64,000 bases of DNA from a plasmid. The position numbers are program-made. Of this stretch, positions 27,001 through 33,000 are shown one piece after another; position 1 is the first letter of the stretch; each line of letters starts with the position of its first letter. The stretch is taken from NCBI RefSeq assembly GCF_988243305.1, contig NZ_OZ547139.1. One strand, 5' to 3'.

Positions 27001-30000
27001 GAACAGGGTCAGCACGATACCGGTAGCTTCTGCGGACAATTCCCCTTCGAACCAGTTACCGCTAACCGATACCGTGAAGCGCTCTGCGCTCAGTGGGTAC
27101 ATGAAGCCGCTACCGCAAGACAGTTCGACGAACTCCCAGGAACCGCCTTGATAATCGGCGCAGAGAGAACGTGCGTGGTTGTAGACACCGGCCTCACCTG
27201 TGAGATACCAGGCGCCGAACAGGCGTGGCAGAAAGGCCATGCGGCGGTTATTGGGGATAATGCGTGCAGTGATGGCGGGTTGATTCAGTTCAGTAGACAT
27301 TTTCTGTACTCCTGCGCCAGTCGGGGCGCTACCGTCGAAAGACCGGATTGCCTTTCGATGTGATTATTATACGTCTAATGAGCCATACCAATCAAGCAAA
27401 ATATTCCCGCCTACCTGAATATTTTCAGGCGGTAGAACTCTTTCCCCTGTCCATTTTTGGGGGCAGGATCACGCCTGCCCCCTTCTGATTCACATGATTA
27501 CTATGACTTTGTTTCAGCGTTAAAGTGTACGGCTGCGATCCTGACCAACGGGATCACCGCGCTTTCCTCATCGAGCACACGAAAATTTATCGCTTCCCCC
27601 AGGTGCATCAGGTTAGCGATAAAATCAACGATGATTTCGGAAACCGGGTGTCCGTCGCAGTCCTGCTCATTCAGGCGCGCAAACAGCGCCAGCGCCTTAG
27701 CGGCCTTGATTGCCCGCTCTTCGTTTTCTTCGTCCATACTGCCGAAACACCATTGCCCCTTTTCAATCAGGGCCAGCGTGTCGTAATAGGCTTCATTCTG
27801 GGACATGTTTTTTCCTCCTGCGCCAGTCGGGGCGCTACCGTGAAAGTTCGCTGCGTTACTGCATGAATTAGCCGTTAATCACCTTCGTGATGCACTCCAG
27901 CGCCTCAGACTCCTGCGGATAAAGTCGGCGTGCAGCTCCTTCACCAGACTGGATTTCTTCCAGCCGGATAAACTGCGCCGCCAGCGCCACGACTTTTTGC
28001 AGCGCCTCGGCATTGACCTCTATCTTTCGATCGCGGGCGGCATCTTCGCGCACCTGCTTTGCCAGGCTCCAGACGGTATCTTTTCCGACGCCATAACGGC
28101 TGTGTGAACTGCATTCCGCGATTTCTGCCAGAACGGCTTCGGCCTCATCGTCAGTGAGGTTCATATCACTGGTGCAGTCATGGACATCTTCAGCAGTCCA
28201 GATCAGAAGGCTGATCCGCTGCTGTGGTTCAAAACTATCGAGAAGCCTTGCGCAAATTTCATTTACGTTACCGTGCATTGTAAAACTCCTGCGCCAGTCG
28301 GGGCGCTGCCGCGAAAGACCGGATGCCTTTCGATGTGATTATTATACGTCTAATGAGCCATATCAATCAAGCGATTTTTCACGCTCATAGCTGCTACAGG
28401 CAACGCTGTAGCAGTTTGCATCCAGTTCTGAAGGCCAGTCGTCACGCCCGCAACCTGACAGCAGGCAGGCGCTGAGGTGCCCAGGGCGATAGTCGAGATG
28501 CTGGCATGAGGCGCAAAGGTCATCATCTGAGATTGAGCGGCCTGCACAGATAGGCGGCGCGCCATCAGTGGGAATTTCTCGAATATGCAGCGTTGTCACT
28601 TTTTTTACTCCTGCGCCAGTCGGGGCGCTGCCGGTTAGCGATGCAGGGGGCTGTCGCCCCCTGCGGCGGTTCAGTCCTTACCCTTATCCTTCATGACTTT
28701 AATCAGCCCGGTAATGGCTGTAATGAGGGCGGCCACGGCCGTGATAATCTGAGGGAGGTTATGGAGGATTTCAGAAGAGGTCATAATGCACCTGTAAGGC
28801 TGTTTAGGAAGGTACTGATTTGAATCAGTAAAAACATTATACGTCTAACGAGCCATATATGCAAGCAAAAAAACGCCCCTTGTAGGGGCGCTGTGATTAT
28901 TTTACATACTGCCAGACATGCGGCGGGATCTTATCCCAGATGCGTCCCGATGCCAGCTCTGCGCGGCGATGGTCGGCGGCAGCCTCAAAAGCCTCGGTGT
29001 CCTCCGGCGGCACCTGTCCACGATCCCGCATGGATTCGTACATTTTTTCCAGTGTGTCCGGGTTACGACTGCGCCGAAAACGGAGAAGGTAAAAACGCCT
29101 CCGTGCCTGATAAACTGTTTCCGCCATGTATCTGCGTCCTGAGCGCCTTGTTATTTCGCATAGTATTCACGTTTTGGTTGAATAAGTCTTCGACTATACG
29201 CCCCTTGCGGGGCGTAGCAGGCGGTCAGCCCCAGGTGCTGTAAAAATGGCTTTCGTTAGGATCGGTCTTATAAGCCTGTTCGTACTCGTCAATGCTGACA
29301 GACGGATGCTCATGGTTTTCACAGATGCGACGGGTCACGGGTTCGCCTTTAAAGTCGTTCAGTACCGGCTTTAACTCGCCAGACATTGCACTGTCTGCTT
29401 TCACCTGCTGCGCAGCGATGCGGCGCAGTACGGCGGTTTTCTTACCGCGCAGGGCGATCACCTGATAAAAACAGGTATTTGTCTGCTCATAACCCCAGCT
29501 GGAAACAAAAACATCACCAAGAGAAACGGAGCCGTTACGGAACTGAAGGGATTGAATAGCCATGTTTATTACTCCTGCGCCAGTCGGGGCGCTACCGCGA
29601 AAAGCCTCATTGCCTTTCGATGTAATTATTATGCGTCTAATGAGCCATATTAATCAAGCAATAAATACATGCCCGGCATGATTTTCTCAGGCCGGGGAAT
29701 ACTTCCTTTCCCTGTTTATATTTCAGGCCGCAAATGCGGCCTGCCGTCTGCATTACACGCGAGGGGGTAACATTCCGGGATAGTGACTGGCAACCAGATT
29801 ATTGATCTTCTCAACCAGCTCCGGGCGTTTAAACGTAATGTGCGCGCTGCCCTTTTTGTAATATCGCACGCTGAAGTAATCACACTCGAACACCTTACCG
29901 TTGAACTGGTTTTCACTGAAAAAGGCATCCAGTTTGGCACCGTCAGAAACACGGTAATCAGGCACGTTACGCCCGTCCAGCACGTAGAACGGCCGCGCCA

Positions 30001-33000
30001 GATCGTCAATTTTGGTGTGCCCGTCTGAGCTGAAGCGCACCCAGCCACTGCGCCAGACATCGAGCAACGGCGCGATGATGATACGCTTGCCAAACATGCA
30101 GGGGTTATTGGTTTTATAATCCCACGACAGGGATTTAAAGATATCAATCAGCCCTTGCGTGAAGGTATCGGCCTTACTTGCGTTCAGGTGCCGGAACGTG
30201 CTCATAACGTTCTCCAGCGTTATCGGCGGCATTTCTTCGCCTGCCACCTGCCGATCCCATTCCTGACGTTGTTTGTTGCTCATCAGCGTATACATGCCGG
30301 TTTCCGACATCAGCCGATCCCAGATTTTTCCGTCGATAACGCGGGAAATAGCCGTTTCGGCCTGGTCTGGTCTGGTGTCGCTCCATTTGATCGCGCTCTC
30401 TACGGCTTTGTCGTAGTCATACAGGTACTGACAGCCTCCGGCCTGCTGCATCAGATCGCGCGCTTTTCGCAGCTTGTCTATGCCGTCGAGATAGACGCGA
30501 ATACCTTCATTCCGCAACGAGATAATGCGCTCAATAGCAATGGACGGGATCACTTCACCGCCATGCTGGCAGGACATCAGATCGACCGACGGGAGAGTTT
30601 TTTCAGATGACATTTCAGACTCCTGCGCCATGCGGGGCGCTACCGTAAGGGGTGAACAGGGCTGGCAATGCCAGCCCATCAATGATTATTTGCAGCGCTG
30701 AAGCAGTTTACTGACCTGCTCGGCCAGCGCATACGTGGACGCATACGGGCCACTTAAACGACGGTTAGGGATTTCGTTGAGGGCATACAGGCACGCCTTC
30801 AGCAGCGCATCTTTCTGCGTGTCCAGTTCAGCTTTAAGCTGGGAGGGGGTCAGTGCTTTACTCATAATTTGTTACTCCTGCGCCAGTCGGGGCGCTACCG
30901 CGAAAAGCCTCATTGCCTCTCGATGTGATTATTATACGTCTAATGAGCCACATCAATCAAGCGTTATCTGATTAATTTTCTTTGTTTTTTCCCGGACTCC
31001 TTTCCCTGTAAATTTTGCTTTTCAGATCCCCATCAGCCCGATGAAGGTGCTTTGCCGGCATGGTGCAGGGGTTCAGGCATCAGACACTAGCGATAGCCCG
31101 AAACCCCGCAGGGGGTTCGGCGGAGCTGCCAGGCCTTGCCTGGCTAGCGGAGTGTGGCTGACGACTGCCCGACGGGCAGGAGCCGAAGGGGCCCAGAGGT
31201 GTTTTAGTACGGCAGGCCTGCCAGAAAACGCCGGCAACTGAGCAGAAATGAACAGGGAAGACACGCTGTGCGGGCGTCAAAATTAAGTTAACTGGCAGAC
31301 ACCAGGGCGGGATCACATCAGAAAGGGCCAGAATAGGGGGCAGGACTCGTCAAAGTCACAAAAACGATGATGGGTACAGGTTTTTTAAATGCGCGCCCAG
31401 AGAGCGGCTCAGAGCGTTTCAGGGCAATACGGGTTCGATGCCCGTATTGCCCTGCAGGCGGCAACCACCGCGTCAGCCTTCAGCTCCGGCCAGATAGCGG
31501 CTTAGCCCCTCACGGGAAGCCAGCACCGACGCTCTGAACTGCGGTTCGCCGTCACCCAGCGCCTTCAGCTTCTCCACGATATTGATCATCGGCGCGGCAG
31601 TACGCTGCTTATAATTCTCGATGTCGGCTGCATATTTCAGTAATGCCATATCACTCGCCTCCTCAGCTGGCAGGTAATCACGCAACCACAGCGCATCTGC
31701 GAACGGATCTATCAGCTTTTGCAACGCTTCAGCCGTTGCTTCGAGCGCCCGCCTGTCGGTTTTGATGGTGCCTGTCTCCGGATCAACACACTTCCCTTCC
31801 CAGCACTCAGGTACAAACGACTCCCGGTAATGAAAACCGTTGTCACCGTTTTCCGCACAGGCCAGTAGGTTCTCGATGCTTTCAGGGGTTCTGTGCCGTA
31901 ACATCCTGGCCGTTGCCATACCGATCGCATTAATCATGATGCCATGCAGTCCCAGCGCCTCCTGACGGTACTCCGCGGCGATATCATCCTGGGCAATATC
32001 ATTCCAGCGCATCGCCTGCGCCCAGGCAGTCCAGAGTCTTTCTGCCATATCACGCTGTTGCGGCGAGGGAATGCTGTTGGCCCGCAGGTTGAGCATTTTT
32101 TTCGTCGCATCGTTCAGCGCTTTAAAGCTGATAAGCCGTGAGCTTTTTGCCGGGACCACGTTGTGTTCAAAATCCACTGTGCCCGCCAGCCCGGTGACGG
32201 TTCGGGCCAGATGCATTGCCAGCTGGTTGACCGGATCATTGTTGTTATATGCCATACTGATCGCCGCTGCCGGTTTGCTCGCGTTGTTATTAATATCAGC
32301 GAAAAACTGCTGGCGTAACTCAAGTGGCAGGCCAACGGTAAGCAATAAGCTGATCGTATCTTCCGTGTTGGAATAATCGCGTACAAATTCAAAAATACCC
32401 AGCGCACGGTGCTGGCCATCGAATAATTTTAAATCAGCGTCCATCGGAATTTTAAGAATACCGACTGCCGGCGAGAGTTCGCTGGGAAGGAATTCAACAT
32501 GACTATCAATATTTCCGGTAATTGACGGCAAAATATAGGGAGCTCGTTTTGATGTTGCGCCGGCAACATAATTCCGTATTTTTTTGGCCCGCGTTTTGTT
32601 CGCTTCTCGCTGGCTGCGATCCATAACATCGCCATCATTGTCCATTGCGAGAATACGACGTAACACGACCATAGGAACCGTCAGCATGTATTGTTCTATG
32701 CCGCCCTGTATTCCGCGTGTGGCCGGGACTCTGAAAAAATAGTTATCAGTATTCATAATATTTCCTTCGTATATCCGATACGTTCAGGAAGCACGTTTGC
32801 GCGTCGGTGTTTTGCGCGGCTATTTCCAGATCGGCGGTAAGCCGGCATCGATGCATAGGACACACCAGACGGAATACGCGATGTCACTTTCTCCGTTCAC
32901 CCAGCGGCGCACCGTTCTGCCGTTCACGCCAACATGTCGCGCCAGCCCCTCCTGACTGAGGTTGAGCACATTTTCCAGCAGATAGCGGAGTTCATCCCCC

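Follow-up and report, generated by a model that had tools for sequence, protein, structure and literature searches.

What does a two-gene cassette on a conjugative plasmid do, and is the larger of its two products an enzyme that modifies DNA? This question is raised by positions 29753-30865 of a plasmid stretch of 64,000 nucleotides (contig NZ_OZ547139.1, assembly GCF_988243305.1), referred to here as the window. The original prediction, made from the sequence alone, had placed two open reading frames (ORFs) of 59 and 286 amino acids at these positions, and had considered the larger protein, speculatively, as an orphan DNA-modifying or defence-blocking enzyme. Both ORFs are present exactly there, on the minus strand. 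The smaller one, ccgA1 (30686..30865, minus strand, ATG start), encodes a homologue of IncN CcgAI. The larger one, orf26 (29753..30613, minus strand, ATG start), encodes RefSeq WP_004206911.1, a 'DUF4942 domain-containing protein'. In pOXA-48, the 59-aa and 286-aa proteins are called CcgA1 and Orf26, respectively (Baffert et al. 2025). The identity of both genes and the structure of their operon can be taken as practically certain. As both genes and their family stand in the literature and in databases, the finding is already known: they have been catalogued as leading-region genes of unknown function, and the cassette is such a catalogued operon rather than a new system.

Orf26 is a member of the DUF4942/YdiA family. 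It matches Pfam DUF4942 (PF13708) with an expectation value (E) of 1.9e-50, over positions 3-189 of the 190 of the model and residues 92-279 of the protein; an N-terminal helical region and DUF4942 make up the whole protein, and nothing else is recognised by Pfam. The earlier remark that no motif could be assigned by eye was fair, although a profile search does assign the domain. The mechanical ORF list runs the gene up to a TTG at 30682 (309 aa); in favour of the ATG start are an AGGAG that precedes it by 6 nt and the N-termini of homologues, as M1 is found in 98% of the 92 aligned. The family is large, with 2,288 representatives of 50%-identity clusters at E<=1e-3, and its proteins are found in >5,000 sequenced plasmids. 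Across homologues of 30% identity, about 25 residues of DUF4942 are near-invariant, and the conserved aromatic or charged residues are W98, W119, W164, Y166, K167, D204, R207, D219, R221, H258 and N271. The ratio of nonsynonymous to synonymous substitution rates (dN/dS) of orf26 is 0.05-0.16, which denotes purifying selection. The isoelectric point (pI) of Orf26 is 7.0, against a family median of 7.6, and that of its basic C-terminal part is 9.3.

The structure search that had been proposed as a check on the larger protein was fruitful in one respect and not in the other. The AlphaFold2 (AF2) model of Orf26 is confident, with a predicted local distance difference test score (pLDDT) of 89 and a predicted template modelling score of 0.80, while the fold search with this model gave no relative beyond the protein's own family. 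A sequence search of the solved structures with Orf26 gave no match even at E 10. PADLOC gave none, NCBIfam nothing above threshold, and the PHROGs with Orf26 are families of unknown function along with one named after fused proteins (phrog_6263). No functional study of DUF4942, YdiA or orf26 was found in the published literature.

Is there, then, a DNA-modifying enzyme in the family? Among the 150 best representatives, 5 (~3%) are longer relatives of 460-559 aa, in which the Orf26-like part is N-terminal and is followed by a C-terminal class I methyltransferase. The fused domain of ~190 aa shows the motifs FPTP, VLEPSAGxG and NPPF. Its best solved relative is the catalytic domain of the N6-adenine DNA methyltransferase M.TaqI (E 3e-7), and it comes without the C-terminal target-recognition domain of that enzyme. 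Orf26 stops where the methyltransferase domain of the fused relatives begins. It has no S-adenosylmethionine (SAM)-binding motif, no NPPY/F motif and no methyltransferase Pfam match, and the fold search found no Rossmann-type methyltransferase match for it. Likewise, no [NDS]PP[YFWH] motif is present in any real gene of the window. When a hidden Markov model (HMM) built on the fused methyltransferase domain was run over every ORF of the window and of 14 loci, the fused control was its only match; a split methyltransferase partner, considered as a candidate, was rejected on this result. Judged by its sequence, Orf26 is thus without a methyltransferase domain and does not qualify as an M.TaqI-like methyltransferase, and the proposal of an orphan DNA-modifying enzyme was not borne out. 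The name 'Methyltransferase', which databases give to standalone members (UniProt A0A221ZPA1, the 309-aa version), looks like an annotation carried over from the fused minority. The practical outcome is a correction: neither interpretation nor annotation should make orf26 a methyltransferase. The other half of the proposal, a defence-blocking role, is plausible.

The fused proteins deserve a closer look. They include P0034 (467 aa), P0099 (559 aa) and WP_086069342.1 of pGZAF1_VIM (524 aa). Their N-terminal 270-290 residues are 35-38% identical to Orf26 and share the invariant residues, and the part that they add is a gamma-type N6-adenine methyltransferase. A standalone form of this methyltransferase was observed in phages, as mini methyltransferases of ~245 aa (loci L018-L021, alignment A4). 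These have an M.TaqI-like core without the C-terminal recognition domain and an N-terminal domain with the pattern GQLDRKLY..VNKVLEA.GGKWNRK.K.HVF; they are encoded among small early phage genes, including an Acb2/Tad1-type gene, with no DUF4942 nearby. In P0034, DUF4942 takes the place of the ~75-aa N-terminal domain of the standalone mini methyltransferases, and in P0099 DUF4942 is followed by a complete mini methyltransferase with an N-terminal domain of its own. The standalone phage enzymes and the arrangement of P0099 imply that the fusions join two modules which are able to work alone. The fusions link DUF4942 with restriction evasion, without making Orf26 a methyltransferase. The phage forms, which do without DUF4942, weaken the idea that methyltransferases of this class need it as their DNA-recognition part. 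A possible likeness between the C-terminal motif RYYKKGSAHITF of DUF4942 and the N-terminal motif GGKWNRKAKAHIF of the mini methyltransferases was also considered. BLAST and hhalign chose the identical local alignment of the two, and homology is not supported (probability 0.4%, E 0.15).

The position of the cassette on the plasmid bears on its possible role. A search of plasmid records with the stretch 29600-31000 gave 99.9% identity to pNDM-HK and other conjugative plasmids of the IncL/M group. The stretch is present in 1,250 records, of which 1,225 are typed as conjugative, and the hosts are mostly Klebsiella, Enterobacter and Escherichia. The nic site published for pCTX-M3 is ACATCTTG/T. 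The published nic 9-mer ACATCTTGT is found at 23562-23570 on the plus strand, adjoining the mobA/nikA and relaxase genes; the placement is a 9-mer match, of which 0.48 are expected in the window. As the nic sequence is on the plus strand at the relaxase genes, the plus strand is the transferred strand (T-strand) and serves minus-strand genes as their template. The cassette, on the minus strand, is 6.2-7.3 kb downstream of nic, at about the 12th-13th ORF. It therefore lies on the first-entering side of nic, belongs to the first ~30 ORFs and has the transferred strand for its template, and the leading-region position that had been claimed for it holds. In the annotation of pNDM-HK, both cassette genes are contained in a same-strand gene run between the relaxase/oriT end and the partition genes, which also holds ssb and genes for KlcA/ArdB-like antirestriction, DUF1380, Hha, DGQHR, a helix-turn-helix (HTH) regulator, JAB/RadC and DUF3085. 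The 59-aa gene is labelled there as 'hypothetical protein' and the 286-aa gene as 'DUF4942 domain-containing protein'.

The family as a whole is enriched close to oriT in conjugative elements and is also found in phage early regions. In the survey of Samuel & Burstein 2024 (Supplementary Table 1), family 24, 'Uncharacterized; DUF4942; Methyltransferase', has 2,171 members (false-discovery-rate p = 0), a median position of 1 from oriT and the T-strand orientation, and family 76 has 551 members and a median position of 6. Both families include Orf26-type proteins. The IncI-gamma/K homologue, 51% identical to Orf26 over 282 residues, lies directly beside oriT-nikA. ArdC is encoded immediately upstream of the Orf26 homologue in locus L011, in pLAU_ENM30 the next gene downstream is an antirestriction gene, and DUF932/YqaJ genes adjoin the DUF4942 gene in Burkholderia islands. 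Two contigs with DUF4942 homologues resemble phage early regions.

How are the two genes expressed? Upstream of ccgA1 is a full copy (30868..30962, minus strand) of a repeated module, repeat family D1, with a promoter, a 5'-untranslated region (5'-UTR) with two hairpins and an AGGAG Shine-Dalgarno (SD) sequence. Over its 95 nt it shares 94% identity with the reference copy (29565-29659), and its AGGAG is 9 nt ahead of the ATG of the 59-aa ORF; both the full module copy in front of the cassette and the strong SD of its first ORF had been foreseen. So had the diverged hairpin/SD copy before the 286-aa gene (30620..30644, minus strand), which has 2 mismatches to the 25-mer hairpin-2/SD core GGTAGCGCCCCGACTGGCGCAGGAG of the module. 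Both mismatches are in the loop (CCGCAU vs CCGACU), the stem and the SD are kept, the promoter part is lacking, and the copy lies 6 nt ahead of the orf26 ATG. The predicted sigma-70-type promoter of the full copy (30931..30960, minus strand; -35 TTGATT, 18-nt spacer, -10 TATAAT) scores 10/12 in a consensus scan, and its core recurs in six or more module copies. The promoter scan predicted no separate orf26 promoter between the two ORFs, and thus ccgA1 and orf26 are probably co-transcribed as a single minus-strand unit. Between the ccgA1 stop and the orf26 SD, RNA folding of the intergenic region gives an intercistronic stem-loop, GGGCUGGCA-UU-GCCAGCCC (30659..30677, minus strand). Both pOXA-48 and pEL60 retain it; in pLAU_ENM30 (L002, 6186-6204) its closing pair is changed on both sides, from G-C to A-U. 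An analogous stem-loop of different sequence follows ccgAI in IncN (L017, ~2688-2708). These observations suggest that a stem-loop after ccgAI-type genes may be a conserved attenuator, processing site or stabiliser.

CcgA1 itself is found in 2,038 plasmid records by tblastn. It is 54-58% identical over its full length of 59 residues to annotated IncN CcgAI (E 1e-14 to 4e-14), and 28 columns are invariant in an alignment of 5 sequences of the CcgAI family. The protein is basic (pI 9.3) and under purifying selection (dN/dS 0.29 vs pEL60). No Pfam, PADLOC or PHROG match and no NCBIfam match above cutoff was obtained for it. A helix-loop-helix with helices at 7-31 and 44-58 is predicted by AF2, with a pLDDT of 86 in the best model and 65-68 in the other four, from an alignment of just 5 sequences. 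Between IncL/M plasmids and the more divergent pLAU_ENM30, the adjacency and spacing of ccgA1 and orf26 are identical, with the synonymous divergence (dS) of orf26 at ~0.77 and that of ccgA1 saturated. In IncN, ccgAI is paired with the 106-aa ccgAII or, in another variant, nothing follows it on that strand. A comparison of CcgAII with the N-terminus of Orf26 showed no similarity. A 59-aa ORF before the Burkholderia DUF4942 gene and a 56-aa ORF before the IncI one were considered as counterparts of CcgA1 and are both unrelated to it; the pairing of 59 and 286 residues is, therefore, not a trait of the family.

What might Orf26 do? It is tentatively proposed that Orf26 is an establishment or anti-defence factor which acts by binding, a reading to which we give somewhat less than even weight. 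The unit is oriented like early leading-region genes, and the protein would be made in the recipient soon after DNA entry. It would then aid establishment of the plasmid, most likely by overcoming a barrier that the host sets against incoming DNA, and would do so by binding that DNA or a host defence or repair protein rather than by methylating DNA. The conserved aromatic and charged site, together with the basic C-terminal half, would be used for binding. CcgA1 and the intercistronic stem-loop would probably tune the expression of orf26 rather than form a functional pair with Orf26. This proposal draws on the T-strand orientation, the enrichment of the family on the oriT side, the neighbours of anti-defence or entry type (KlcA/ArdB-like, SSB, RadC, DGQHR and DUF1380 genes on this plasmid, anti-restriction genes beside homologues) and the fusions to orphan methyltransferases; the conserved polar and aromatic residues, the neutral pI with a basic C-terminal part, and purifying selection are further in its favour. 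A bolder version is doubtful. It holds that DUF4942 is an anti-defence effector of a new fold, non-enzymatic or unconventional, which directly neutralises a widespread barrier, and that in IncL/M plasmids it is expressed behind a CcgA1/stem-loop leader within a CUP-like regulon of 10 promoters whose near-invariant hairpin-SD core is recognised by a factor. Such an effector would explain the typical entry as the very first gene in IncI/IncF-type plasmids, the recurrence in phage early regions and the occasional methyltransferase fusion.

Several points weigh against an establishment role by binding. Orf26 has no similarity, in sequence or in fold, to known anti-defence proteins or defence models. 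The neighbourhood argument is one of guilt by association, as replication, recombination, SOS control and regulation are also represented among leading-region genes. Charge and the fusions are the only hints of DNA binding, and the fusions are no proof of a shared substrate because the methyltransferase module exists standalone in phages without DUF4942. The experimental record also counts on this side. By transposon insertion sequencing (Tn-seq) of pOXA-48, ccgA1 and orf26 were non-essential both in the input library and after conjugation, and orf26 insertions were slightly enriched in transconjugants (log2 fold change 0.78, adjusted p 0.045, columns as read) (Baffert et al. 2025). The matings of that study were made between E. 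coli K-12 derivatives, so that the plasmid was not challenged by foreign restriction. In a CRISPR interference screen of pOXA-48, orf26 was not among the genes with effects on fitness or stability.

Other explanations have to be weighed against binding. That Orf26 is itself an orphan DNA methyltransferase, or another DNA-modifying enzyme, which protects the incoming plasmid is very improbable. It would draw on the N6-adenine methyltransferase fused to some family members, with M.TaqI as its best Protein Data Bank match, on the names 'DNA methyltransferase' of phrog_6263 and 'Methyltransferase' of the 309-aa UniProt version, and on the invariant polar residues D204, H258 and N271, which would suit an active site. 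DUF4942 is, however, the only domain of the protein, motif IV and a fused-domain HMM match are lacking, as is a Rossmann-type fold match, and nothing points to a new non-SAM chemistry. A gentler use of the fusions makes DUF4942 a DNA-targeting adaptor, comparable to a target-recognition domain, which positions the methyltransferase in the fusions and, when standalone, recruits a host enzyme (Dam, another methyltransferase or a repair factor) to the incoming strand. The missing target-recognition domain of the fused enzyme, the replacement of the mini-methyltransferase N-terminal domain by DUF4942 in P0034, and the basic C-terminal half of Orf26 would all suit an adaptor. Yet P0099 appends a complete mini methyltransferase, and since this keeps its own N-terminal domain, DUF4942 is not needed as the DNA-binding part of the methyltransferase. 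Target-recognition domains usually vary with specificity, whereas DUF4942 has its ~25 near-invariant residues; no methyltransferase gene is beside the standalone homologues in the 8 sampled contexts, and no structural similarity to the target-recognition domains of HsdS or M.TaqI was seen. Such an adaptor is accordingly judged improbable.

It is also conceivable, though unlikely, that Orf26 is an establishment factor unrelated to defence, with a part in processing the incoming single strand (complementary-strand synthesis, recircularisation, recombination or SOS control) or in plasmid gene regulation. Genes of SSB, ParB-like, YqaJ and RecT type are among the neighbours, a family median position of 1 from oriT suits a function that is needed earliest, and a table of the N3 plasmid labels IncN ccgAII as 'Prevention of RecA overproduction'. 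Against this, orf26 insertions leave transfer and maintenance in K-12 unreduced, where a role in core processing should show, and the partners in the fusions are methyltransferases and not replication or recombination domains. The adjacency and spacing of the two genes, the same in IncL/M and in the divergent pLAU_ENM30, could further be taken to mean that ccgA1 and orf26 depend on each other as an obligate two-component system, be it of the toxin-antitoxin/addiction kind or a regulator with its effector. The N3 table labels CcgAI as 'Regulation of ccgAII expression', and there is a sub-threshold NCBIfam match to TIGR02574, 'putative addiction module component' (E 0.0098, 15.9 bits vs a cutoff of 31.9). 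The pairing is lineage-specific, though, and not conserved outside IncL/M-like plasmids, as IncN, IncI and Burkholderia differ, and both genes tolerate transposon insertions in the pOXA-48 Tn-seq; an obligate pair is hardly to be expected. The remaining probability belongs to explanations other than establishment by binding and these four.

The IncI-gamma/K homologue resembles Orf26 in size, T-strand leading-region orientation and standalone architecture, but is not preceded by ccgA1 and a module-type UTR as orf26 is. At 6-7 kb from nic, as about the 12th-13th ORF, Orf26 is farther in than the surveyed family with its median position of 1. The leading-region genes of IncN plasmids are reportedly organised as a 'CUP-controlled' regulon, and CUP and ccgA are the terms used for IncN genes in the N3 plasmid table. 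In the CUP unit of IncN (pKM101/R46), as in IncL/M, a repeated upstream promoter/UTR element stands before several leading-region genes, and the one before IncN ccgAI can be aligned in part with the IncL/M module, with ATAAT..CATCG..GGCAAT in common. The IncL/M module looks like a counterpart of the CUP arrangement. The IncN locus differs in lacking the IncL/M hairpin-2/SD core (the core 21-mer is absent) and in its downstream gene, as ccgAII is unrelated to orf26. By tblastn, no ArdR homologue was found in the window; ArdK was not searched.

Orphan methyltransferases of leading regions protect entering DNA from restriction, and M.EcoGIX of pESBL (IncI1) is a beta-class DPPY methyltransferase which acts on single strands (Fomenkov et al. 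2020). Such enzymes occupy the same genomic niche as Orf26, in the same orientation, while its sequence is unrelated to theirs. ArdA/Ocr, ArdB/KlcA and ArdC are likewise located in leading regions and co-occur with the family (a KlcA/ArdB-like gene here, ArdC in L011), without similarity to Orf26 in sequence or fold. With its neutral pI, Orf26 is also unlike the strongly acidic DNA mimics ArdA/Ocr.

These genes matter because of the plasmids that carry them. The IncL/M plasmids (pOXA-48, pCTX-M3, pNDM-HK) are major carriers of carbapenemase and extended-spectrum beta-lactamase genes, and few of the families enriched where conjugative DNA first enters are as large as DUF4942/YdiA, whose members have no recognisable fold. 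If a role in establishment or anti-defence were true, it would amount to a new mechanism by which resistance plasmids cross host barriers, and Orf26 would become a possible target for blocking transfer.

The module before ccgA1 is one of many. Repeat family D1 has six copies, spread over 26377-34445. RNA folding of the UTR predicts hairpin 1 as CGAGAGGC..GCCUUUUCG and hairpin 2 as GCGCC-CCGACU-GGCGC, with a fold energy of -19.9 kcal/mol (z -1.8). With <=2 mismatches allowed, the minus strand of the window holds 10 copies of the 25-mer core, against 0 in 100 shuffles; the copies are at 26384, 27309, 27815, 28286, 28608, 29572, 30620, 30875, 34357 and 35892, and every one sits 5-9 nt ahead of a start codon. 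The region 26377-35966 (minus strand) can thus be described as a regulon of at least 10 genes with a near-invariant 25-nt hairpin and SD core, of which 6-7 also have the promoter and first UTR hairpin in common. The core stays near-constant while its flanks drift, which suggests that it may be recognised sequence-specifically by a protein or an RNA, or may act as a hairpin in the transferred single strand. No Rfam family matches the UTR module or the intergenic stem-loop.

At the 3' end of the unit, an inverted repeat, CAGGCCGC-AUUU-GCGGCCUG (29724-29743, minus strand), was read directly from the sequence, and a terminator scan gave a terminator-like hairpin, CAUGCCGGGCAUG, with a U-rich tail (29668-29680, minus strand). 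These 3' elements (29668..29743), both of them consensus matches only, directly precede the -35 of the next module.

A palindrome, TAGGACAAAATGTCCTA, lies at 33640-33656 (minus strand) between a TTTACA -35 and a TATTAT -10, upstream of a RadC/JAB gene (33131..33580) and an HTH gene (32820..33086). It fits the lone KorC operator of pOXA-48, which is in the orf24-korC promoter; korC is essential there. Since operator and repeated module are different sequences, the module is probably regulated by something other than KorC.

Some neighbouring genes may also be mentioned. At 26860..27300 (minus strand), a 146-aa protein with 32% identity to IncN ArdB (KlcA-type antirestriction) is encoded behind a module copy, which places a known anti-restriction gene in the promoter/UTR regulon of the cassette. 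Directly upstream of the cassette is a 427-aa DGQHR (DndB-like) gene (31473..32756, minus strand). The gene is intact in the window and interrupted by IS1 in pOXA-48, where disruption of its 5' part falls into the growth advantage class in Tn-seq. In the transfer region, a 1,175-aa ORF (14922..18449, minus strand) is of the polyvalent-protein type and is labelled 'LPD7 domain-containing protein' in pNDM-HK. Lastly, the Rfam family PK-repBA, a pseudoknot of the repBA regulatory region, matches at 12-135 (minus strand; 118 bits, E 2e-26), which shows where, at the start of the window, the control region of the IncL/M replicon lies.

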